DNA of 64,000 nucleotides from Thermodesulfobacteriota bacterium (GCA_964291405.2 OZ219926.1:1120001-1184000); one strand, 5' to 3'. Counted from the stretch's first letter, positions 28,497 to 59,715 are shown. Made by a program: numbers and translations. The notes: generated by a model from the letters alone, not told the origin.

Positions 28497-28912
28497 TGTA
28501 TCTGCTCGACACCAATGTCATTGCCGAGCTGAGAAAAGCGAAGTCCCCCAAAGTCGATCAAAAAGTCCTGGTGTGGGCCAATAGTGTTCCGGTGGCAAGC
28601 CTTTTCTTATCGGTCATTACGGTTTTGGAACTTGAAAAGGGCATCCTTCTGATCGAGCGTCGAGACCCGACGCAGGGCGCGATACTCCGCTCTTGGCTCG
28701 ATACCTATGTGTTACCGGCGTTCCGTGATCGCATTTTACCTGTCGATACCGCAGTTGCTCAAAGTTGCGCCAGACTGCACGTCCCGACCCCACGGCCAGA
28801 TCGTGATGCGCTCATCGCGGCCACGGCATTGGTTCATGGGCTGACGGTCGTCACCCGAAATGTCGCTGACTTTGCGCCGACAGGCGTCGAGATAGTCAAC
28901 CCTTGGGAATGA
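28496..28912 (+). CDS. vapC: VapC/PIN domain toxin
   Basis: [13 protein letters not shown]...LELEKG...DALIAATALVHGLTVVTRNVADF. Confidence 0.93.
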   Translation: MYLLDTNVIAELRKAKSPKVDQKVLVWANSVPVASLFLSVITVLELEKGILLIERRDPTQGAILRSWLDTYVLPAFRDRILPVDTAVAQSCARLHVPTPRPDRDALIAATALVHGLTVVTRNVADFAPTGVEIVNPWE

Positions 28913-45205: not shown

Positions 45206-47287
45206 TCAGGGTATGCTGATGAGGTAGTTATTCAGCGACGCCACCTGGGCGACGCTATGGGGGTAGAGCACTATCGTCGTTGTCGGCTCCTCGATGATCG
45301 CCGGTCCGTGGAGCTGCATGCCGGGCTCAAGCGCTGATCCCAAGTACAGCGGAGTATCAGTGCGACCCTGACCTGCGAAATACACACTCCGGTGCGCATG
45401 GGGAATGGGCCCCCGCGGTGTATCCCGCGCAGGCGGACGGTCTGGTTGAATCCGATCCAGGAGCCCGGTCAAACGGCCCTTCCAGTACAGGCACTCGACC
45501 TCGGCCCCTTCTTCCTTGACGGCAAAAACGCGCTCGTGCACCCGATGGAAGCCTTGGACCAGGGCTGCTACGTCGCGCGGACCATCAAAGCGGTCCTTTT
45601 CCAAGGGAATCTCGAGTTCCCATACCTGAGTGGGATAGCGGGCTTCAACAAAGAAGTCCCGCTTAAAATTGCGGAGGCCCCGCCCCCGCAGCTCCGACTC
45701 AAGGGCGTCCATTTCGGTGTGCAGAGACTGCAAGGCCGCATTCACCTCGGTGTAGGCGAAATCGTCTGTCACGGCCAGTCTACTCAGACTGAATTCAGCG
45801 ACAATGTCCGAGTACTGTGCGCCGCAGGCGCTGAGCGCACCCGCGGTCCGGGGGACGAGCACCTGAGGACAGCCCAGGGCTTGGGCAATAGAGACAATAT
45901 TCAGTCCGGCGGCTCCTCCCCCAGCGACAAGCAGTGTCTCGCGCGGGTCAATCCCTTCGTTCACCGAAATCTCCTGGATCGCCTGCACCATGGCCTCACC
46001 GGCAATAGTCAGAATAGCCTGGGCGGCTTGGTCGATCGTCTGCTCCAGCGGCTCGGCAATGGTTCCAACGGCGTGCCGCGCGGCCTCCGTATCCAGTTGC
46101 ATCTGGCCTCCCAGGAAGTACGCGGGATTCAAGTAGCCAAGCACCAGGGCCGCATCCGTGACCGTCGGCCGTGTCCCCCCCCGTCCGTAGCAGGCCGGAC
46201 CGGGCTCAGCGCCTGCACTGTGTGGGCCAATACGGAGCAGCCCACCAGGGTCGATCCAGGCGATCGAGCCGCCGCCGGCACCAATGCTCCGGACATCGAC
46301 GGACGAGAGGCCGGTCATATGTCCAACCCACTGACCACCGAGCCAGGTTTCACGCGTGGCCTTTATCAGGCCATCCCGCACCAGACTGACGTCGAAGCTC
46401 GTCCCGCCCGTATCACACGTGATGACATCTCGGCTGCCAACTTCAGCCTGCGCGTAATGCAGCGCAGCCACCGGTGCAAGCGCGGGACCCGAGCGGATAG
46501 TATTAATAGGACGCTCCGCCAGCTCCTGAATGGGCATGACGCCACCGGACGATGTTGCGCCGAGGATCTCGCCACGAAAGCCGGCGCGGCTCACATCCTG
46601 GGCAATCTCCCGCAGATGGCGCTGCATGAGCGGTTTGAGTGAGGCATCGATGACGGTTGCCGAGGCCCGACGATATTCACGAATAATCGGGTTGAGCCGG
46701 GATGAGAGCGTGTAGGCAAGCCCCGGCAGTTCCTCCTCAATCAACCTGCCCAGAGCCGCTTCGTGTACCGGGTTGACAATGGACCAGACCAGACAGACAC
46801 CAATCGCCTCAATATGATGCGCACGGAGGCGCTTCAGAATACTGCGCGCATGCTCCACATCGAGCGGGACAACAACATCTCCCTCCGCATTCACTCGCTC
46901 CCGTATTTCAAAGGTGAGACGCCGCGGGACATAGGGTTCCGGGTAGGGTGCCGTGAAGTCATAGGCGTTGGTCTTGCCGCCCTCGCGGAGCACCAGAATG
47001 TCGGGAAAGCCCTCAGTTGTCAGAAATGCCGTCTTGCCGGTCTTCCCCTCGACCACGGCGTTCGTCGCGGTGGTCGTCCCATAGATAAAGAGGTCGGCCT
47101 GGCTGAGCAGGGTGGGCACGTCAGGCTCGCCAAGCTGCCGGGCCACGACGGTCAGGCCCTGCTCCATACCGTGAAAGAGCCGCTCTCGGGTAGTGAGGCC
47201 CTTTCCGATCGTCATGCGCCCCGTGTTGTCAGCGACAACAACATCGGTGAAAGTCCCGCCAACGTCAATGGCAATGCGATAACCCAT
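45206..47287 (-). CDS. Hydantoinase A/oxoprolinase family ATP-binding subunit
   Basis: IDVGGTFTD, GTTTATNA, DTGGTSFD, GAGGGSIA, PGPACYGRGG. Confidence 0.93.
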   Translation of the reverse strand: MGYRIAIDVGGTFTDVVVADNTGRMTIGKGLTTRERLFHGMEQGLTVVARQLGEPDVPTLLSQADLFIYGTTTATNAVVEGKTGKTAFLTTEGFPDILVLREGGKTNAYDFTAPYPEPYVPRRLTFEIRERVNAEGDVVVPLDVEHARSILKRLRAHHIEAIGVCLVWSIVNPVHEAALGRLIEEELPGLAYTLSSRLNPIIREYRRASATVIDASLKPLMQRHLREIAQDVSRAGFRGEILGATSSGGVMPIQELAERPINTIRSGPALAPVAALHYAQAEVGSRDVITCDTGGTSFDVSLVRDGLIKATRETWLGGQWVGHMTGLSSVDVRSIGAGGGSIAWIDPGGLLRIGPHSAGAEPGPACYGRGGTRPTVTDAALVLGYLNPAYFLGGQMQLDTEAARHAVGTIAEPLEQTIDQAAQAILTIAGEAMVQAIQEISVNEGIDPRETLLVAGGGAAGLNIVSIAQALGCPQVLVPRTAGALSACGAQYSDIVAEFSLSRLAVTDDFAYTEVNAALQSLHTEMDALESELRGRGLRNFKRDFFVEARYPTQVWELEIPLEKDRFDGPRDVAALVQGFHRVHERVFAVKEEGAEVECLYWKGRLTGLLDRIQPDRPPARDTPRGPIPHAHRSVYFAGQGRTDTPLYLGSALEPGMQLHGPAIIEEPTTTIVLYPHSVAQVASLNNYLISIP

Positions 47288-47504
47288 GGGCAGCCCCAAA
47301 CGATGCTGAGCTGAAATGCCGGATAAGTCCGGGCATTATACTCTCAGTCTTCCAGATATCCAGCGTTGTCTGTATATCTCACTGTTTTTTCTCCTGCTAT
47401 GCGTGCTTACCAGCGTGTCCCTGTAAGCGTCCCTGTGGCAATGATCTTATCACTACAGATAGCGTATCTGGACAGCTTGAGCCGGTGGCGTATTATTCAA
47501 GCGA

Positions 47505-49193
47505 GTGAAAGGAAAAGATGTGGCACGGGGACAAAAGCAGAAGAGACAAGACGATCACTCGCAGGACACCCATGACGCGACGACCGGCTATGAGGCCCAA
47601 CTCTGGGCCATGGCCGACGCCCTGCGCGGCAGCATGGACGCCGCGGAGTACAAGCATGTCGTTCTCGGTCTGATCTTTCTGAAATACATCTCCGACGCCT
47701 TCGAGGAGATGCACGCCCGTCTCGAAGGTGAACAGGATCAGGGCGCCGACCCCGAGGACCCGGACGAGTATCGCGCCGAGAATATCTTCTGGGTGCCGCC
47801 CGAGGCTCGCTGGACGCAGCTCAAGGCCCAGGCACGGCAAGCCACCATCGGCCAACTCGTCGATACCGCCATGACCGGTATTGAGCGCGACAACCCGGCA
47901 CTCAAGGACGTACTGCCCAAGGACTATGCCCGCCCGGCGCTCGACAAGCAGCGGCTCGGCCAGCTCATCGACCTCATCAGCAATATCCAGGTCGGCGACG
48001 CGGAAGCCCGCTCCAAGGACGTGCTGGGCCGCGTTTACGAATACTTTCTGTCGCAGTTCGCCAGCGCCGAGGGCAAGAAGGGCGGCGAGTTCTACACCCC
48101 GCGCTGCGTGGTCACGCTGTTGGTCGAGATGCTGGAGCCCTATCAAGGCCGGGTCTATGACCCCTGCTGTGGCTCCTCCGGCATGTTCGTGCAGTCGGTC
48201 GCCTTCATCCGTGCCCATCAATCCGGCAACGGTAATGGTGGCAGCGCCCCACAGGCCACCAGGGCCGACATCTCGATTTATGGCCAGGAGTCCAACTACA
48301 CCACCTGGCGGCTGGCAAAGATGAACCTCGCCATTCGCGGCATCGAGGGCCAGATCGCCCACGGCGACACCTTCCACAACGACCGCCATCCCGACCTCAA
48401 GGCCGACTTCATCCTAGCCAACCCGCCCTTCAATATCTCCGACTGGGGCGGCGAACGGCTAACCGAGGACAAGCGCTGGCAGTACGGCACCCCACCCAAG
48501 GGCAATGCTAACTTCGCTTGGGTGCAGCATATCGTCCACCATTTGGCACCGGTCGGTACGGCCGGCTTCGTACTCGCCAATGGCTCCATGTCGTCCAACC
48601 AGTCGGGCGAGGGCGCTATCAGAAAAAGTCTGATCGAAGCTAGCCTGGTGGACTGTATGGTGGCGCTCCCCGGCCAACTCTTCTATTCAACTCAAATCCC
48701 GGCCTGCCTGTGGTTCCTGGCCCGCAACCGCAGGAACCGGCAGTCCAGCGGCCGGCGCGGCGAAATCCTGTTCATCGACGCCCGTAAACTCGGTCGCATG
48801 GTGGACCGCACCCACCGCGAACTGACCGCCGCCGACATCGCCCGCATCGCCGACACCTACCATGCTTGGCGCAATCACCCTCCTTCCCCCTCGCAAGGCG
48901 AGCCCCATCCTACCCCCTCTCCCTCGAAGGGAGAGGGCCGGGGTGAGGGTGCCGCCGTCTATGCCGACATCCCCGGCTTCTGCAAGAGTGCATCCCTGGC
49001 AGACGTACGCAAGCACGGCTATGTGCTGACCCCCGGTCGCTATGTCGGCGCGGAAGCACGAGAGGACGACGGCGAGCCGTTCGAGGACAAGATGAAACGG
49101 CTGGTAGCAGAGTTACGCATGCAGCAGGCCGAGTCTGCGAAGCTGGACGTGGCTATCGAGGCCAACCTGAAGGAGCTTGGATTTGGTGGGTGA
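47505..49193 (+). CDS. hsdM: Type I restriction-modification methyltransferase subunit
   Basis: [39 protein letters not shown]. Confidence 0.95.
48876..48950. repeat. In-frame palindromic insertion in hsdM
   Basis: Encodes [25 protein letters not shown]; hairpin CCCTCTCCCT-CGA-AGGGAGAGGG followed by CCGGGGTGAGGG. Confidence 0.7.
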
Positions 49194-50568
49194 CACCGCG
49201 AATCTCCGGTCGTTGCTTATCCACACGCGCGATGGTGAGTGGGGAGTCGCCAAGCCTGACGACGGTCTTGTTCCCGTACATGTCATCCGAGGCACCGATT
49301 TCGAGCCCGTTCGACGGGGCGACCTAACAACGATCCCAACTCGATACCTGCCGGCCGAACACAGAGCGAGAAAGGCGTTAAGACCGGGCGACATTCTTAT
49401 TGAGACTGCCGGAGGCTCAAAGGGTCGTCCGACTGGCCGTACTTTACTCATTCAGGCGCGTACATTGGAAGGCACCGAAATTCCTTTCACCTGTGCAAGC
49501 TTTGCTCGGTTCCTTCGTGTAGATGAAGCCCGCATCAATGCTCCATATTTGTACTGGTTTCTCCAGTATCTCTACCAGATTGGGGAGATGGAACAGCATC
49601 AGGTTCAACACACAGGTATCGCTAGATTTCAGTTCACTAGATTTGCTGAAGAAATTCAGGTCCCTCTGCCACCCCTCCCTGAACAACGCACCATCGCCCA
49701 CATCCTCGGCACCCTGGACGACAAGATCGAACTCAACCGCCGCATGAACGAAACGCTCGAAGAGATGGCGCGGGCGCTATTCAAGAGTTGGTTTGTGGAC
49801 TTCGATCCCGTCCATGCCAAAGCCACCCTCAGAAACCACACTCCTAATCACTCCCCCCTTGATTGGACTGTGGAACGGGCTCGGGCGTATCTTGACGGGA
49901 TGGACTCAGACATTGTCGCATTGTTCCCTGATAGTTTTGTCGATTCGGAGTTGGGGGAGATACCGGAGGGGTGGGGAGTTGGAAAATTGAAGGATGCGGT
50001 GGATCAACTCCGTGACAAAGAGAACCCGCTTACGTCACCGAGTGCTTCCTTCAGCCATTTTAGTATTCCTGCTTATGATGAGGGGCAAACACCGAAGCAG
50101 GAGCTAGGTGGAAGTATCAAAAGTACAAAGACACGGGTGTGTCCTGGCGTCGTCCTTTTGTCCAAGCTCAACCCAGAGATTGAAAGGGTTTGGTTAGTGG
50201 ATGTATCGCCCGATGACCAAGCAGTCTGTTCGACTGAGTTCTTGGTTCTCCGTACCAAACCGCCTTTTCACCGCAGCTATGTCTACTGCCTACTGCGTAC
50301 CTCTCTTTTCCGGCAGCAGATTAAATCACTTGTTACAGGGACATCTAAGAGCCACCAACGCGCCCAAGCGGAAGCCGTCCTAGACCTCCCCATAGTCTTT
50401 CCACCGGGGGCTCTCATAGATTCGTTCGAGAAGGTCGCCGAAAATTTTCTAAGTAAAACACTGAATTGTCGCTCCGCATCCCGCGCTCTCGCCACCCTAC
50501 GGGATGCACTACTACCCAAGCTCGTTTCTGGCGAGCTACGGGTAAAAAGTCAGAAACAGTATGATTGA
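49186..50568 (+). CDS. hsdS: Type I restriction-modification specificity subunit
   Basis: Two TRDs separated by [44 protein letters not shown]; ends [19 protein letters not shown]. Confidence 0.93.
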
Positions 50569-52300
50569 TCCGATCCATTCACTCGCATTTTCCATTCAGG
50601 CAAATCGAGGCGTTTATGCCGCCCTTGTCGGCTCAGGTATATCCAGGGCGGCAGAAATTCCGACCGGTTGGGAAATAACGCTAGGCTTGGTTCATGGGCT
50701 TGCAGCTCTCCAAAACAATACAGCGGAGCCCGACCCTGAGACTTGGTATCGGGAACAGTTCGGGAGAGAGCCGGACTATTCCGATCTCCTTGAAAATCTC
50801 GCCAGGACGCCCGCCGAGCGGCAACAATTGTTACGCAGCTATTGGGAGCCGAATGAACAGGAGCGTGCCGAAGGGAAGAAGCAGCCAACCGCAGCACACC
50901 ACGCTATCGCTGCATTGGTGGCTCAAGGATTCATAAAGGTCATCATTACCACAAATTTTGACCGCCTGATGGAAAGCGCCTTGCGTGACGCTGGAGTTGA
51001 GCCAACTGTTCTGAGTTCACCAGATCACGTCCAAGGGATGCTACCGCTTATCCACACTCAGTGCTGCGTTCTCAAGCTCCATGGCGACTATCTCGACACG
51101 CGTATTCGCAATACGCCCAGCGAACTCGAAGCATACCCCGAGGAATTCGACCAACTCCTTGATCGTATCTTCGATGAGTTTGGTCTTATTATCTGCGGCT
51201 GGTCAGCTACCTGGGACAATGCGTTGCGTAACGCAATCGAGCGCTGCCCATCCCGGCGGTTTACGACCTATTGGGCGGTACGTGGCGAGCCCAGCGATGA
51301 GGCTCATCGGCTGATTAACCATCGTGGTGCTGAAGTGATCAGTATTGAGGAAGCCGACACGTTCTTTCAAACCGTTCAGCAACACGTCGAGTCCATCGAA
51401 GAGTTTTCGAGGCCCCATCCCCTTTCAACCGAAGCCGCAGTGGCAAGCTTAAAGCGCTATCTCTCTGAGTCCAGATATCGGATTCAGCTTTCGGACCTCA
51501 TTGACGAAACAGTGGATAGAATTATCGAGGCGACCTCCGGCGAGGCTTATTCCGTTCAAGGCATACCTATAAATACAGAATCAGCGACGGCCCGTGTACG
51601 CGGCTACGAAGCGGCGTGTTCGACATTACTGGCAATGGCACCGGTCGGAGGGTTTTGGGCAGAAGAGGGACACTATCATGTTTGGCAACGAGCACTGGAG
51701 CGTTTATCCCCAGTTAATAGTAATGGTTCTCCATTTTGGTTGAGCTTGCAATGCTATCCAGGAACACTGCTGCTTTACGCCTTGGGCCTCGGTGTGGTTA
51801 AGGCACATCGATTGGAATTCCTTGAACGCCTCTTCGCAACTATGATCCACAGGGAACATCGTGAGGCGATTGCTGCCGTGCAACTACTTCCCCCATTCTG
51901 CTTATTCAGTGTGCATAGCCAAGGCGGCCAGGCTGCTCAAATATTAGAAGGTATGGAAAGAAATTATGTACCGCTGAACATCTGGTTGTATAACGCACTA
52001 AGACAGTATGCAAAGCGAATCATCCCTAGCGATGATGAGTATATGTTGGTCTTCGATAAGCTCGAAATTCTTATCGCGCTTGGATATGCGTACCGAGAGC
52101 GTCTTAATTGGGTTCCAAGGGGAGTATTTATTTACCGAGATGAGAACAGACATCGAGTTTTACAAGAGATCAAGGAATCTACATCGGCACTCCAGGAGCA
52201 ATCGCCGTTTGTGAAAAGCGGTATTTTTGGTGAAACTGTTGAGCAATGCTCGCAAAGCTTGAAATTTTTCAACGTATCTCTCGCGCGAGCCCATCGGTGA
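50561..52300 (+). CDS. SIR2-like domain protein (putative NADase) with an unassigned helical C-terminal half
   Basis: LVGSGISRAAEIPTGW, IITTNFD, LKLHGD, IICGWS; start overlaps hsdS end. Confidence 0.87.
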   Translation: MIDPIHSLAFSIQANRGVYAALVGSGISRAAEIPTGWEITLGLVHGLAALQNNTAEPDPETWYREQFGREPDYSDLLENLARTPAERQQLLRSYWEPNEQERAEGKKQPTAAHHAIAALVAQGFIKVIITTNFDRLMESALRDAGVEPTVLSSPDHVQGMLPLIHTQCCVLKLHGDYLDTRIRNTPSELEAYPEEFDQLLDRIFDEFGLIICGWSATWDNALRNAIERCPSRRFTTYWAVRGEPSDEAHRLINHRGAEVISIEEADTFFQTVQQHVESIEEFSRPHPLSTEAAVASLKRYLSESRYRIQLSDLIDETVDRIIEATSGEAYSVQGIPINTESATARVRGYEAACSTLLAMAPVGGFWAEEGHYHVWQRALERLSPVNSNGSPFWLSLQCYPGTLLLYALGLGVVKAHRLEFLERLFATMIHREHREAIAAVQLLPPFCLFSVHSQGGQAAQILEGMERNYVPLNIWLYNALRQYAKRIIPSDDEYMLVFDKLEILIALGYAYRERLNWVPRGVFIYRDENRHRVLQEIKESTSALQEQSPFVKSGIFGETVEQCSQSLKFFNVSLARAHR

Positions 52301-52339
52301 TGATGGGAGTAAAGTTTTCACCGTGAAGGAGGTTGAGTA

Positions 52340-52729
52340 GTGGCAATGAAACGCGCATTTATCAGTTTTGACTTCGACCATGACGAGGAACTGAGAAATG
52401 CTTTGGTTGGTCAGGCAAAAAATCCAGATTCACCATTTACTATCGCGGATTGGTCGGTAAAGGAGCCATTCACCGGGGATTGGAGAGGGAAGGTTCGCGA
52501 CCGAATACGCAGAACCGACCTGACCATTGTCATCTGTGGACGGTACACACATACCGCCAAAGGGGTTGCTGCCGAGTTGAGCATCACCCGTGAGGAAAAC
52601 AAACCTTACTTTCTACTAAAGGGGCGCCCTGATTACACTTGTACTAAGCCTGACATGGCCCGTCGTTCAGACAAGATTTATAGATGGACATGGGAAAATC
52701 TGAGACGGCTGATTCGCGGAGAGAGATAG
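52340..52729 (+). CDS. Stand-alone TIR domain protein (ThsB/MTH538/DUF1863-like)
   Basis: KRAFISFDFDHD, DWSVKE, W...VRDRIRRTDLTIVICG..T..AKGVAAEL with the catalytic-position Glu, C-terminal WTWENL. Confidence 0.85.
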   Translation: MAMKRAFISFDFDHDEELRNALVGQAKNPDSPFTIADWSVKEPFTGDWRGKVRDRIRRTDLTIVICGRYTHTAKGVAAELSITREENKPYFLLKGRPDYTCTKPDMARRSDKIYRWTWENLRRLIRGER

Positions 52730-52733
52730 CCTG

Positions 52734-53237
52734 ATGTCCCAGCAGTCGAATGGGCGTTTGGTTAATTACACGAAAGAGACGTATGGAGATTCCTTCGGCA
52801 CGGACCTTCTTGAGCAATATAAAATATACGTGCAGTCAGCCGAGAATGTCAGCGCGCGCCGGGTGGCTTCGAGTCGCTATCTCCTCACACTCAACATCGC
52901 GCTCGTGACTCTCTACGGCATTCAATCTGAGGGGTTCGTTCAGAGCTATTGGGCGATACTGGTTCCAATACTCGGCATCCTAGTCTCTTTGCTTTGGTAC
53001 CAGATCATCAAGTCTCACAGTGATCTGAATACCGTCAAATTCAAGATAATCCACCAACTTGAAGAGCATTTGCCAGTTGCGCTGTATGCCTATGAGTGGC
53101 AGTTGGCCGGAGAGGGGCGCGGGACATCCTATAGTGCCGTCACTCACATAGAAAAGTGGATTCCGAGAGTCTTTATTGCCCTCCACAGCATTCTCTTTAT
53201 CTCACCGTTTTTGGTAAAGAGCGACTTCCTGATTTGA
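52734..53237 (+). CDS. Small membrane protein, candidate pore-forming defence effector
   Basis: LLEQYKIYVQSAENVSARR, TM hairpin (YLLTLNIALVTLYG; WAILVPILGILVSLLW), LNTVKFKII..LE..LP..LY..EW, third hydrophobic segment at the C-terminus; resembles, from memory, the family annotated as RipA-like octameric membrane protein. Confidence 0.7.
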   Translation: MSQQSNGRLVNYTKETYGDSFGTDLLEQYKIYVQSAENVSARRVASSRYLLTLNIALVTLYGIQSEGFVQSYWAILVPILGILVSLLWYQIIKSHSDLNTVKFKIIHQLEEHLPVALYAYEWQLAGEGRGTSYSAVTHIEKWIPRVFIALHSILFISPFLVKSDFLI

Positions 53238-53330
53238 CTACAATAATCACCTGCCCCGAATCCACCCTCGAAACAACGTCCAACATGGTCTATACTGGAC
53301 CACTATCGCTTAGTTGCCGGAGGTGTGACC

Positions 53331-53606
53331 ATGGAAGTCTCCAAACCCCAGCGTGTATGGACTGTTGCCGAAGCGAAGGCCCGTCTGTCCGAGGTCTTGC
53401 GGCTGGCCGAGACGGAAGGGCCGCAGCGCATAGGTACCCGGCGTCCGTTCGTTGTGGTGCCCGCCGAGGCGTGGGACGCGAAAACGCCGCCGCGTAAGCC
53501 CTTTGGCCAGTGGCTCATAGAGAACGTACCACGCGGCACCAATCTTGAGGTGCCGGAGCGGAGCTCCAATCGCCCGATTCCCTTCATTGACGAAGAAGAC
53601 GAATGA
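53331..53606 (+). CDS. Phd/YefM family antitoxin
   Basis: WTVAEAKARLSEVLRLAETEGPQRI. Confidence 0.87.
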   Translation: MEVSKPQRVWTVAEAKARLSEVLRLAETEGPQRIGTRRPFVVVPAEAWDAKTPPRKPFGQWLIENVPRGTNLEVPERSSNRPIPFIDEEDE

Positions 53607-54018
53607 CTGGCTACCTTCTGGATACCAACGTAATCTCGGAGTTGACGCGGAACATTCCAGACCCCCGGGTTGTGGACTTTCTGGCCGAGCGAGACGATGT
53701 ATGGGTGTCGTCTGTCCTCATCCATGAAGTAGAATACGGATTACGGTTGCTCCCACAGGGAATCCGCCGCAATCGGCTGTCTACCATGCAAGCAGCCATT
53801 CTTTCGGGATACGCCCATCACATACTGCCATTGGACAGGGCAGGGGCCGAGTGGGCCGCCGAGTTTCGGGCGAACGCCCGGCGCTCTGGATATACGATCG
53901 ACGTGGGCGACGCCTTGGTCGCCGGAATAGCCCGAGCCAATACCCTCACCGTCGCCACTCGGAACGTCGCCGATTTCCGGCCCTTCAACGTCGCAGTCAT
54001 CAATCCCTGGGAAACGTC

Positions 54019-54022
<4 letters not shown>
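53603..54022 (+). CDS. vapC: VapC/PIN domain toxin
   Basis: [11 protein letters not shown]...HEVEYG...DALVAGIA....[10 protein letters not shown]...INPW. Confidence 0.92.
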
Positions 54023-57249
<3,227 letters not shown>

Positions 57250-57339
57250 CCGGAGGCAGGGCGCCTTAGGGATGTTCGCCTTGACCTCCAGATATAAACG
57301 CGCGATGGTTCTGGAACTGACACAGTCGGAGGGAAGCCC

Positions 57340-59715
57340 ATGACCACGGTCGGCACGGGTAAGATGGTTGGCGCCCAGGTGAAACGGGTCGAAGACCCGC
57401 GGGTGCTGTTGGGTCAAAGCCAGTATGTCGATGATATCCACCTGCCCGGCACCCTCGGAGTCGCCTTTGTCCGCAGCCCCTACGCCCATGCCCGGCTGCT
57501 CACGATCGATGTCAGCGCCGCTCAGGCGTATCCAGGGGTTGAGGCGGTCTTGACCGGGGCGGATGTTGCCCAGGCGATCCGCCCCCTCCGCGTGGAGTAT
57601 GATCCGGCCAAGGCCCCGAAACATAAACCGTGCAACTGGTCGGTGTTAGCCCTGGACAAAGTCCGCTTCGTGGGAGAACCCGTAGCGGTCGTGGTGGCCT
57701 CGGACCGCTACACGGCAGAGGATGCCGCGGCTCGCGTGGCAGTCGAGTATGAGCCCCTGGAGGTTGTGAGCGATATAGAACAGGCTATGCAGCCGGACGC
57801 ACCGCTCATTCATGAGGAATGGGGCGACAATCTCATGCAGACAGTGGACATGGAGGCCGGCGCGATTGCCCAGGCATTTCAATCGGCAGACTGCATCGTA
57901 GCCGAGCGCTTTGCGACCGGCCGGCATGTGGCGCTACCCATGGAAGCCCGCGGCTGTCTGGCCCACTATGAGCCGGCTTTAGGCTCCCTGACACTGTGGT
58001 CCTCGACCCAGGTACCGCATCTGATGCGCGCCCACCTGGCCCGGCTGCTCGACTTTCCCGAGCACCATATTCGGGTCATTGCGCCGGATGTCGGCGGAGG
58101 GTTTGGACCCAAAGCCTATGTCTATCCCGAGGAAGTCCTGCTGACCTTCCTTGCCAAGCATGTCGGCCGCCCGGTCAAGTGGATCGAAGACCGACGCGAA
58201 AACCTGTCCGCCTCGACCTTGCAGGCCAAACAACAAGTCGTGCAGGCGGAACTCGCCCTGACACAGGAGGGGGCGGTCCTGGGGGTGAAGGGGCGTTTTA
58301 TCTGCGACGTGGGCGCGTACTCGGCCTATCCGTGGGGCTCGGCCCTGGAGGCCGGCATGGCGGCTTCGGCCTTCCCCGGAGGCCCCTATAAGGTCCCAGC
58401 CTTCCGCTGCGAGGCCCTCTCGGTTGTCACCAACAAGGTGACGAGTGGAGCCTATCGTGGGGTGGGCTTGCCGGTCAGTATCCTGGTCATGGAACGCCTG
58501 CTCGACCTGGGGGCACAGAAACTTGGGCTCGACCCGGCCGAACTGCGTCTGCGCAATATGATCCGCAAGGAGGAACATCCCTATCAGATCGTCACCGGGG
58601 TTGAGATTGAAAGCGGCAGTCACCGGGAAGCGCTGCAAAAAGCGCTGGACATGCTCGACTACCAGGCTTTCCGGGCCGAGCAGCAGCAGGCGAGACAACA
58701 CGGGCGTTACCTCGGCGTCGGCCTGGGCTGTTATGTCGAGAGTTCGTCCTACAGCTATCGCAGTTTCGAGCCGGTCGGCATCACCTGGGGTGGCTACGAG
58801 TCGGCCACCGTGCGTATAGACGCGAATGGCAAGGTCACCGTCCTGGTCGGCACCCACTCGCACGGCCAGGGCCATGAGACGACGTTTGCCCAGGTTGCGG
58901 CAGACGAACTGGGCGTGCCCGTGGCCGACGTCAGGGTGATCCAGGGAGATACCACGACCGTTCCCCACGGCTGGGGGACGTGGGCCAGCCGTAGCGCCGT
59001 GCTCGGCGGCGGCGCCATTATCCAGGCGTCGGGCCAGCTGCGGGAGAAAATTCTGCGTACGGCCTCGCGCCTGAGTGAAGTGCCACAAGATGATCTTGAG
59101 CTGGCCGAGGGGCTGGTCCGGCGCAAGACGGACGGCCTGGCGCTCATGCCCCTCCAGGACATCGCCCACCTGCTGGTTGTTCGGGCACCGGCAGGTCTAC
59201 CGGAAGACGAAGAACCGGGCTTGGAGGCAACGGCACACTACACCCCACCGCCCTGGACCCACGCCAACGCCACGGTTCTGGTGACGGTCGAGGTGGACAT
59301 CGAAACCGGCTCCGTTCGGCTGCTGCGTCTGATTGTGGTCGAAGACTGCGGCACAATAATCAACCCGCTGGTGGTTGACGGACAGATCCAGGGCGGCGTG
59401 GCCCAGGGGATCGGCTCGGCCCTGTACGAACAGACCGTGTACGACGACAACGGGCAACTGCTGACGGGCACGCTGATGGACTATCTGGCCCCAACCGCGG
59501 TGGACGTTCCTCGGGTTGAAATCGGACATATAGAAACCCCGGCTCCGAACACGCCGCGCGGCATCAAGGGCATGGGCGAAGGCGGAGCCATTTCACCGCC
59601 GGCAGCCATAGCCAACGCCGTGGCGGACGCCCTGGCACCGTTGGGGGTACGGGTCAGCGAGATTCCACTCACCCCGGAGCGGGTGCTCGCCCTGATTGAC
59701 CAGGCACGGGCATGA
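57340..59715 (+). CDS. Xanthine dehydrogenase family molybdopterin-binding large subunit (CoxL-like)
   Basis: KRVEDPR, VRSPYAHA, PDVGGGFG, GAYRGVG, HGQGHETTFAQ, INPLVVDGQIQGG, KGMGEGG. Confidence 0.92.
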   Translation: MTTVGTGKMVGAQVKRVEDPRVLLGQSQYVDDIHLPGTLGVAFVRSPYAHARLLTIDVSAAQAYPGVEAVLTGADVAQAIRPLRVEYDPAKAPKHKPCNWSVLALDKVRFVGEPVAVVVASDRYTAEDAAARVAVEYEPLEVVSDIEQAMQPDAPLIHEEWGDNLMQTVDMEAGAIAQAFQSADCIVAERFATGRHVALPMEARGCLAHYEPALGSLTLWSSTQVPHLMRAHLARLLDFPEHHIRVIAPDVGGGFGPKAYVYPEEVLLTFLAKHVGRPVKWIEDRRENLSASTLQAKQQVVQAELALTQEGAVLGVKGRFICDVGAYSAYPWGSALEAGMAASAFPGGPYKVPAFRCEALSVVTNKVTSGAYRGVGLPVSILVMERLLDLGAQKLGLDPAELRLRNMIRKEEHPYQIVTGVEIESGSHREALQKALDMLDYQAFRAEQQQARQHGRYLGVGLGCYVESSSYSYRSFEPVGITWGGYESATVRIDANGKVTVLVGTHSHGQGHETTFAQVAADELGVPVADVRVIQGDTTTVPHGWGTWASRSAVLGGGAIIQASGQLREKILRTASRLSEVPQDDLELAEGLVRRKTDGLALMPLQDIAHLLVVRAPAGLPEDEEPGLEATAHYTPPPWTHANATVLVTVEVDIETGSVRLLRLIVVEDCGTIINPLVVDGQIQGGVAQGIGSALYEQTVYDDNGQLLTGTLMDYLAPTAVDVPRVEIGHIETPAPNTPRGIKGMGEGGAISPPAAIANAVADALAPLGVRVSEIPLTPERVLALIDQARA

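Follow-up and report, generated by a model that had tools for sequence, protein, structure and literature searches.

A TIR-8xMP gene pair with Thoeris-like organisation in a defence-gene hotspot of a type I restriction-modification operon

Known Thoeris systems differ in the effector that accompanies the TIR protein. The accessible text of Yirmiya et al. 2025 (10.64898/2025.12.03.692087) predicts 29 Thoeris effector types, seven of them validated, and uses the argument that one TIR cluster occurs with different neighbours. Two of the validated effectors are ring- or filament-forming membrane proteins, DUF2270 in type V and SLATT in type VII, and operons with two effectors are also reported there; type IV combines a TIR protein with a caspase-like protease and uses N7-cADPR as the signal (10.64898/2025.12.03.692087, PMC13243611). 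Defence genes embedded in type I restriction-modification (RM) operons form a second point of reference. The available part of the 2024 preprint of Payne et al. describes such 'guilt-by-embedding' and places PrrC almost only in type I RM operons; embedding in type I RM is also how the PDC candidates were found (2024), and TgvAB of the Vibrio cholerae island VPI-2 is described in the accessible text of PMC11411939 as defence genes embedded in a type I RM operon. Here we analysed a 64,000-nt stretch of Thermodesulfobacteriota DNA (GCA_964291405.2, OZ219926.1:1120001-1184000; hereafter the window, all coordinates counting from its first letter), in which a small TIR-like gene and a membrane protein gene of the 8xMP family lie side by side between hsdS and hsdR of a type I RM operon.

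The TIR-like gene is of the ThsB type (52340-52729, + strand, 129 amino acids; Pfam ThsB_TIR, 3.5e-8), and 4 nt past its stop begins the 8xMP or 'RipA family' membrane protein gene (52734-53237, + strand, 167 amino acids; PF24838, 9.1e-36). The PF24838 match scores 123.1 bits against a cutoff of 30 and covers profile positions 1-133 of 136, i.e., the whole domain. The stop of a SIR2 gene lies 39 nt before the TIR start, and the SIR2 start overlaps the end of hsdS by 8 nt, ATGATTGA. An earlier, sequence-only reading of the stretch had proposed the SIR2, TIR and membrane protein genes as a candidate Thoeris-like cassette of co-oriented, tightly packed and AT-rich genes. The open reading frame (ORF) map and the sequence agree with this arrangement and its spacings, all three genes being on the + strand, and GC is 0.51 for SIR2 and 0.49 for the TIR and membrane genes, with 0.53 in hsdS, vs. 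0.63 in both hsdM and hsdR and 0.60 in the whole window. The explanation that we favour, and hold to be reasonably probable, is nevertheless a different one: a stack, in one hotspot, of the SIR2 gene, a Thoeris-like TIR-8xMP pair and a Phd-VapC pair. Judged from sequence, the TIR-8xMP pair is quite likely a functional two-gene defence module.

To follow the pair in other genomes, one genome per species was scanned with the 8xMP protein, the best 80 of 349 loci were kept (L001-L080), and their gene content was read by tblastn with eight window proteins. The loci carry the taxon labels Binatia, Dehalococcoidia and other Chloroflexota, Latescibacterota, Nitrospirota (Nitrospirales), Alpha- and Gammaproteobacteria (Pseudomonadota) and Actinomycetota (Actinomycetes), and one comes from a Nitrosopumilus-labelled metagenome-assembled genome (MAG). 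A TIR-like ORF stood directly upstream of the 8xMP gene in 80/80 loci, in L075 only as a weak partial match (residues 66-129, 42% identity) inside a 443-amino acid ORF. From the TIR stop to the inferred 8xMP start we measured -20 to +29 nt in 79/80 loci; the remaining one, L079, looks broken. The 8xMP proteins of the 80 loci are 55-90% identical to the window protein. Two or three tandem TIR-like genes precede a single 8xMP gene in 12/80 loci. Nine of these 12 are L019, L023, L025, L038, L043, L053, L070, L074 and L077. The 443-amino acid protein of L075 (8666-9997) is TIR-like at its C-terminus alone, and a separate TIR_2 protein is encoded upstream of it.

The RM setting of the pair is frequent and changeable. 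An hsdS gene lies upstream in 59/80 loci, and in 53/80 it is combined with a full hsdR downstream; no gene of the window's RM family was found near the pair in 21/80. Five pairs without RM genes lie among housekeeping genes (L014, L058, L061, L063 and L077), and nine lie amid transposases and other defence genes (L019, L023, L030, L038, L043, L051, L065, L069 and L075), their neighbours including AbiE, Mrr, GmrSD, TIR_2, a CAP12-type TIR and SIR2_2; 140 flanking ORFs were scanned across the 21 loci. On a tree of TIR plus 8xMP (77 rows, leaving out L075, L079 and any row whose extracted sequence contained an in-frame stop) the RM/no-RM label changes 15 times, with at least 11 changes forced by well-supported branches, vs. 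a mean of 17.1 after shuffling and 59/500 shuffles as low. Mean GC of the pair is 0.527 vs. 0.629 in hsdR and 0.600 in the distal flanks, the pair being lower in nearly every locus. Our best reading is that the TIR-8xMP pair is an autonomous unit, often embedded beside hsdR. Across L001-L080, in at least six phyla and the archaeal-labelled MAG, identity to the window is 65-94% for hsdM and hsdR and 48-90% for the pair; such high identity across phyla points to a recent inter-phylum spread of the whole operon.

More distant 8xMP homologues were found on plasmids (30-47% identity), and the context of 10 out of 34 records was examined by annotation and our own hidden Markov models (HMMs). A TIR gene is adjacent in 6/10: Haematospirillum, Synechococcus, Polaromonas (with the pair right after hsdR), the archaeon Halorubrum, Clostridium perfringens and Novosphingobium. 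Together with the four contexts that have no adjacent TIR gene, this indicates a TIR-linked subfamily inside a wider 8xMP family. One 8xMP match was obtained in a phage collection, and it is the same Haematospirillum plasmid record.

The TIR protein gave a confident AlphaFold2 model (predicted local distance difference test, pLDDT, 90.1; predicted template modelling score, pTM, 0.85). In Foldseek searches the model matched the B. cereus TIR 8fz9 (E 5e-10, template modelling score 0.75), EcThsB 8wcf (5.7e-5) and the TIR domains of SARM1 and SPARTA, and at E<=10 Pfam returned ThsB_TIR plus a sub-threshold TIR_2 only. The invariant positions include FISFD, W48, VR52-53, DL60-61, C66, G67 and E79. 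The glutamate of the AAEL motif singled out by the sequence-only reading is Glu79, which is invariant in 26/26 sequences of one alignment and conserved in >=95% of the 77 sequences of another.

Judged from hydropathy and conservation, the 8xMP protein has a conserved N-terminal helix in the cytoplasm, two to three hydrophobic helices and, in its middle, a conserved segment that is also cytoplasmic. Two of the hydrophobic helices are clear (74-92 and 143-161) and one is weaker (49-64). Conservation is best over residues 24-64 (LLEQYK.YVQSAENVS.RR...), and the middle segment reads SH.DLN..KF..IH..E.HLP..Y..EW; the conserved basic cytoplasmic residues K30, R42, R43, K102 and H107 are only suggestive as a signal-binding site. 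In the protein atlas the cluster is labelled 'RipA family octameric membrane protein', a label which we take to refer to Francisella RipA, in the accessible text a cytoplasmic membrane protein required for intracellular growth. The family is large: 937 relatives at E<=1e-3 in a 90%-clustered protein set, and, in a profile search of a 1.84-billion-protein library, 3145 representatives of 50% clusters, of which 1895 reach E<=1e-10 and 169 reach E<=1e-30. No match to the protein was found in the PDB, either by sequence and profile or by Foldseek of the monomer model at E<=0.001, the model itself being poor (see below). Among four longer relatives, three (P0121, P0122 and P0123) join 8xMP to HsdR N-terminal and helicase domains, and the fourth is partial; these fusion ORFs could have arisen by read-through or a frameshift at the 6-nt junction described below, or they could be gene-calling artefacts.

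We found no SLOG, Macro, SLATT or DUF2270 (PF10028) match at E<=10 in the two small proteins, nor DUF2270 or SLATT in two relatives. The sequence-only reading had recognised neither a SLOG nor a Macro sensor, and Pfam indeed places none in any of the three proteins. Literature searches returned nothing on '8xMP', 'octameric membrane protein' or 'PF24838', nothing tying RipA to TIR, phage defence or Thoeris (one Avs5 paper with a single RipA mention was not assessed), and nothing on ThsB with hsdR that describes a TIR-8xMP pair. The main text of Yirmiya et al. 2025 has no mention of RipA, 8xMP or restriction, and the pair may still be among its 29 putative effector types.

The relatives of the TIR protein showed that its partner can change. 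Among 53 plasmid records from a search with the TIR protein we examined six contexts. The closest TIRs, from Rhizobium, Bosea, Methylorubrum and Sphingomonas, are 55-63% identical, and that from Providencia 41%; these are followed by a Peptidase_C14 caspase-like protein of about 325 amino acids, with no 8xMP gene, in 5/6 contexts, and in the sixth, an E. coli plasmid, the TIR gene is alone. A TIR tree (89 rows, 129 columns; limited resolution) mixes caspase-paired with 8xMP-paired TIRs inside a supported clade, and a single caspase-paired clade was rejected (approximately unbiased test, p 0.0004). Moreover, the C. perfringens plasmid NZ_CP065633.1 (L086, 1495-3808) carries caspase-TIR-8xMP-TIR in one operon. 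As read from these sequences, caspase and 8xMP effectors swap within one TIR clade, which suggests that the TIR is the constant upstream component and the neighbour the variable output. L086 has two putative effectors for its two TIR genes, and an annotated cpb2 gene lies about 2 kb from the operon.

Two generic features of a Thoeris operon are found in the pair, namely a ThsB-type TIR-domain protein that keeps the catalytic glutamate (by Pfam, fold and Glu79) and an effector gene conserved beside it (80/80 genome loci, 6/10 distant plasmid loci). Strict adjacency and the exchange with caspase-like proteins uphold the Thoeris-like reading for the TIR and membrane genes. For the pair we infer an enzymatic activity, a signal, a membrane effector role and an anti-phage function, which would be connected as follows. 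The two genes would form a translationally coupled, Thoeris-like signalling pair, with the TIR protein as sensor and signal-producing enzyme. Upon infection the TIR would, via Glu79, turn NAD+ into an ADP-ribose-derived signal, this signal would bind the highly conserved cytoplasmic face of the oligomeric 8xMP protein, and 8xMP would then breach or depolarise the membrane, so that the infection is aborted. We lean, if slightly, towards such a signal-gated membrane effector mechanism. A further step, possible though doubtful, would be that TIR and 8xMP constitute an undescribed Thoeris type, in which a ring-forming effector of the RipA family is gated by N7-cADPR as in type IV and the unit is a near-fixed, translationally coupled companion of hsdR. 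If true, restriction and an abortive membrane kill would be expressed as one unit, and the function-unknown 8xMP/RipA family would gain a first biochemical handle.

Several observations weigh against this picture. Among the weaker fold matches of the TIR model are DNPH1 and MilB, nucleoside 2-deoxyribosyltransferase-like hydrolases, and NAD+ is thus not the sole possible substrate. At E<=10, Pfam finds in the 8xMP protein only 8xMP and a chance-level DEK_C, with no recognisable signal-binding domain. The family name implies an octamer, only the monomer was folded, and the AlphaFold2 model of it is poor (pLDDT 65.2). No TIR-8xMP fusion was detected among the four longer relatives or, with a TIR HMM, among the top 150 of the 3145 representatives, which is weak evidence. 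The four plasmid 8xMP genes with no adjacent TIR (Leptolyngbya, Embleya, Streptomyces and Acaryochloris) imply TIR-independent roles in the wider family. Moreover, the gap before hsdR is below about 110 nt in 25/53 loci and about 6 nt in L005, and this tight link leaves room for a functional tie of the pair to restriction; the locus counts, being anchored on 8xMP, give no estimate of the share of the RM family that carries the pair. A complex prediction for TIR plus 8xMP scored 0.00 vs. a mark of 0.32 and weighs neither for nor against binding.

The roles could be reversed, or shared in a complex: the membrane protein would be the sensor or anchor and the TIR a killing NADase or other nucleotide hydrolase, with no diffusible signal. 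Many bacterial TIRs are NAD+-depleting effectors, according to the accessible text of 10.64898/2025.12.03.692087; gene junctions of -20 to +29 nt fit stoichiometric partners, and the likeness of the TIR fold to the DNPH1 and MilB hydrolases points the same way. However, TIRs of this very clade also have caspase-like proteases, known effectors of Thoeris, as partners, and 12/80 loci have two or three TIRs per 8xMP, as in Thoeris operons with several ThsB genes. We therefore consider the reversed arrangement unlikely and retain the TIR as the signalling component.

The 3′ end of hsdS is the upstream edge of a variable defence slot and hsdR its downstream edge, and the gap from hsdS to the TIR gene is at least 600 nt in 57/59 loci with hsdS. 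Representative ORFs from this gap were run against Pfam (45 ORFs) and PADLOC (39 ORFs). Among known systems we identified KwaA/KwaB (Kiwa), GajA/GajB (Gabija), SoFic, PD-T4-7 and PD-Lambda-2_B; among PDC candidates, PDC-S01, S02, S20, S32, S45, PDC-M02A/B and PDC-M24B, with a PtuA-like ATPase in addition. Other cargo comprised Schlafen/AlbA, DUF2806, DUF4238, PIN_4, a second SIR2_2, TIR_2, an MNT-HEPN-type protein and DUF433/DUF5615 pairs. The slot is thus hypervariable, with more than 20 cargo families around one constant TIR-8xMP pair, and the hsdS-hsdR interval of the window is a defence-gene hotspot with three independent modules: SIR2, TIR-8xMP and Phd-VapC. That accessory defence genes are at home in this interval, as the sequence-only reading had stated, is borne out by these related loci and fits the accessible text of Payne et al. 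2024 and PMC11411939.

The downstream edge of the slot carries traces of its history. Starting 6 nt past the 8xMP stop, a decayed copy of the first ~11 hsdR codons (53243-53275, + strand, ~33 nt, the start decayed to ATA) was recognised by alignment with the window hsdR start and with L005, where the hsdR GTG lies about 5-6 nt past the 8xMP stop; remnant and hsdR start also appear as a direct repeat (53251-53272 / 54027-54048, 86%). Between the two lie a Phd/YefM-type antitoxin gene (53331-53606, + strand; TIGR01552 phd_fam, 2.3e-6, 26.8 bits vs. a cutoff of 20.8; Pfam PhdYeFM 3.3e-5, below the cutoff) and the gene of its partner, a VapC toxin with a PIN domain (53603-54022, + strand; Pfam PIN, 3.9e-13; NCBIfam VapC models score below the cutoff). 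The position of the remnant after 8xMP indicates that Phd-VapC inserted into an older 8xMP/hsdR junction, and the toxin-antitoxin pair would accordingly be a later insertion between membrane gene and hsdR. VapC lies downstream of the pair in 10/80 loci. The sequence-only reading was right about the three genes of the hsdS-hsdR interval, and it had overlooked both Phd-VapC and the hsdR-start scar. A second VapC-like ORF, at 28499-28909 of the window, is 38% identical to the VapC of the RM operon (tblastn).

In L013, L021, L025, L049, L054, L056, L069, L070, L079 and L080, similar fragments of ~40-70 codons from the hsdR 5′ end precede the TIR gene or follow 8xMP; L069 has its fragment after the pair though no full hsdR is nearby. 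The recurrence of such fragments between cassettes suggests that recombination through the hsdR start exchanges the cargo. Upstream of the TIR gene the loci share no more than ~25-30 nt, and no recombination site was recognised there. At another joint of the operon we observed a second recurrent passenger, a HEPN-type gene (NTase_sub_bind, ~140 amino acids) between hsdM and hsdS in 16/51 complete-operon loci of our ORF clustering, e.g., at 5898-6320 of L070.

These data bear on a PrrC-like guard role, in which HsdMSR would keep the pair silent and a phage anti-restriction protein that disables the enzyme would fire it. Its appeal lies in position: 59/80 pairs follow hsdS and 53/80 lie between hsdS and a full hsdR, always as the last conserved element before hsdR; in L005 hsdR starts about 6 nt past the 8xMP stop and the window keeps the scar of such a junction; in three database ORFs 8xMP is joined to the N-terminus of HsdR, the Polaromonas plasmid pair adjoins hsdR, and PrrC itself is hardly found outside type I RM operons (Payne et al. 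2024, available text). Yet 21/80 pairs have no gene of this RM family, some of them lying among housekeeping genes, and these 21 also weaken the earlier suggestion of a back-up that would fire upon RM inhibition. Of the plasmid pairs linked to a TIR, 5/6 lack an RM gene in the stretch examined, and the tree requires at least 11-15 changes of RM context. With so many unrelated systems in the same slot, the location may reflect a recombination hotspot only. A guard function of the pair is therefore improbable in our view, and we keep to an autonomous TIR-8xMP module.

The third occupant of the hotspot, the SIR2 gene (50561-52300, + strand, 579 amino acids; SIR2_2, 1.3e-12), matches PADLOC PDC-S65 with E 2.9e-215 over profile positions 12-585 of 592, i.e., at full length. 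Its product combines an N-terminal SIR2 domain of the NADase type (~1-280) with a fast-diverging C-terminal domain of unknown fold. At E<=0.01, Pfam reported SIR2_2 and a sub-threshold SIR2 only, and the best PDB match was the SIR2 domain of the SIR2-APAZ-type proteins 8jkz/8in8 (E 6.9e-10). The motifs that the sequence-only reading had named are present: GSG and TTNFDRL (TTNFD being T130-D134) are kept in 9/9 aligned homologues and His174 of LHG in 8/9. Homologues share 47-70% identity in the N-domain vs. 20-49% in the C-domain, a faster divergence that fits what would be expected of a sensor domain. An atlas search with the C-terminal domain (285-579) gave only sub-threshold leads (<=0.79), and a full-text search for 'PDC-S65' found no literature. 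The protein probably consumes NAD+ as an abortive-infection enzyme, with infection sensed by its variable C-terminal domain.

Results showed that this gene goes its own way. It accompanies the TIR-8xMP pair in 3/80 loci (L042, L048 and L052, all Caldilineaceae). No TIR or 8xMP gene lay near SIR2 homologues in 5/5 plasmid contexts (Cupriavidus, Bradyrhizobium, Rubrobacter, Streptomyces and Bacillus, out of 52 plasmids with homologues; annotation and our own HMMs). Two loci whose flanks are 95-96% identical to the window, with genes for hydantoinase B and A on the upstream side and for a molybdopterin-binding oxidoreductase on the downstream side, show the orthologous chromosomal site in other states: L002, from a sister genome, reads hsdM-hsdS-KAP NTPase (PDC-S20)-TIR-8xMP-Phd-VapC-hsdR, with the KAP NTPase in the SIR2 position, and in L003 the RM genes are decayed and the TIR-8xMP pair is intact. 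Because of the rare co-occurrence, the single-gene PDC-S65 match, the solitary plasmid genes and the KAP NTPase swap, SIR2 is very probably independent of the pair; it is exchangeable cargo in the hotspot and a new member of the catalogued candidate family PDC-S65. The membrane protein, by contrast, has no match in PADLOC v2.

A joint, non-canonical Thoeris system, as first proposed, in which a TIR signal would drive both the SIR2 NADase and the membrane protein, can appeal to the co-oriented, tightly packed genes of the window, to the order hsdS-SIR2-TIR-8xMP that recurs in L048 and L052 (in L042 SIR2 follows hsdS with other genes between) and to the two-effector Thoeris operons in the accessible text of 10.64898/2025.12.03.692087. 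However, SIR2 is missing from 77/80 pair loci, the loci with SIR2 are split between two distinct regions of the TIR plus 8xMP tree, and the protein has neither SLOG nor another recognisable signal-binding domain, its match to the type I ThsA (SIR2-SLOG) being weak and confined to the SIR2 core (E 7.2e-6, residues 106-178). Together with the single-gene nature of PDC-S65, its solitary occurrence on plasmids and its replacement in L002, this makes the joint system very improbable. The alternative that the same reading had held in reserve, namely SIR2 alone and TIR plus membrane protein stacked in one hotspot, matches the data. Hardly credible, finally, is a role outside immunity, with 8xMP as an envelope or housekeeping protein and the TIR-like partner as a nucleotide-processing accessory: TIR-less family members (4/10 plasmid contexts) and the 'RipA family' label, Francisella RipA being needed for intracellular growth in the available text, would suit it, but most pair loci lie in defence islands, RM operons, plasmids or transposon-rich stretches, the pair has a lower GC than its flanks in nearly every locus (mean 0.527 vs. 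0.600) and is spread across phyla at 55-90% identity, and the TIR relatives belong to type IV Thoeris-like operons.

The type I RM operon that hosts these modules is complete and intact, hsdM, hsdS and hsdR all having strong Pfam and PADLOC matches: the methyltransferase gene hsdM (47505-49193, + strand; Pfam N6_Mtase 7.5e-106 and HsdM_N 3.1e-28; PADLOC MTase_I 5.9e-218), the specificity subunit gene hsdS (49177-50568, + strand; Pfam Methylase_S 7.4e-12; PADLOC Specificity_I 3e-83) and the restriction subunit gene hsdR (54019-57249, + strand; Pfam HSDR_N 4.9e-47, SWI2_SNF2 9.2e-76 and T1RH-like_C 1.2e-135). The hsdR start was set by homology at the GTG at 54019, tblastn matches beginning at residue 2 of the 54016 translation and the alignment agreeing; hsdR start and VapC stop overlap in GTGA at 54019-54022. 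In a scan of 47000-57600 the numbers of promoter-like sites (6 vs. 3.8 +/- 1.9) and terminator-like sites (10 vs. 9.8 +/- 2.8) were compatible with shuffles, and the only + strand promoter-like sites in that scan lie before hsdM (47469) and before Phd (53268). Within hsdR, at 55253-55333, a 45-nt unit with an internal palindrome is repeated once, in tandem and in frame, which gives the SWI2/SNF2 domain a repeated low-complexity insert of the SAGEREG type; only these 2 copies occur in the window. HsdM has a P/S/G/E-rich low-complexity stretch close to its C-terminus.

The SIR2 gene of this locus is a catalogued single-gene candidate, and the interest lies in the TIR-8xMP pair, a mobile unit of two genes that is deeply conserved, follows the logic of Thoeris and has an effector family absent from PADLOC v2. 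If the pair works as proposed, it would add a new effector family to TIR signalling immunity, present in bacteria and archaea with its 3145 cluster representatives. Since TIRs of one clade occur with a caspase, with 8xMP or with both, nature provides an experiment by which to ask if different effectors respond to one and the same signal. In addition, the locus presents the type I RM operon as a site of cassette exchange, with a constant pair, more than 20 alternative cargos and duplicated hsdR 5′ ends at the joints.

Compared with the described systems, the pair has in common with Thoeris II (TIR + TM-Macro), V (TIR + DUF2270/ThsF) and VII (TIR + SLATT/ThsH) the two-gene operon in which a small ThsB-type TIR with the catalytic Glu is followed by a small multi-helix membrane protein of a homo-oligomer-forming family, as well as defence contexts and, in some loci, several TIRs per effector. 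It differs in that its effector is PF24838, with no DUF2270, SLATT or Macro match at E<=10. Closest to type IV is the TIR itself, which is 41-63% identical to plasmid TIRs preceding Peptidase_C14 genes, both kinds of TIR interleaving on the tree; unlike in type IV, no caspase gene stands beside the pair in the window or in the 80 loci, the partner being a membrane protein. Type I differs again, since its ThsA is a SIR2 fused to SLOG and the window SIR2 has no SLOG; this SIR2 instead resembles PDC-S65, which it matches end to end, and is embedded in a type I RM operon. With PrrC and TgvAB the locus shares independent, co-oriented defence genes between hsd genes and a suspected complementary protection, and it differs from them in that the slot of the window type is hypervariable around a constant pair, with duplicated hsdR 5′ pieces marking the cassette borders.

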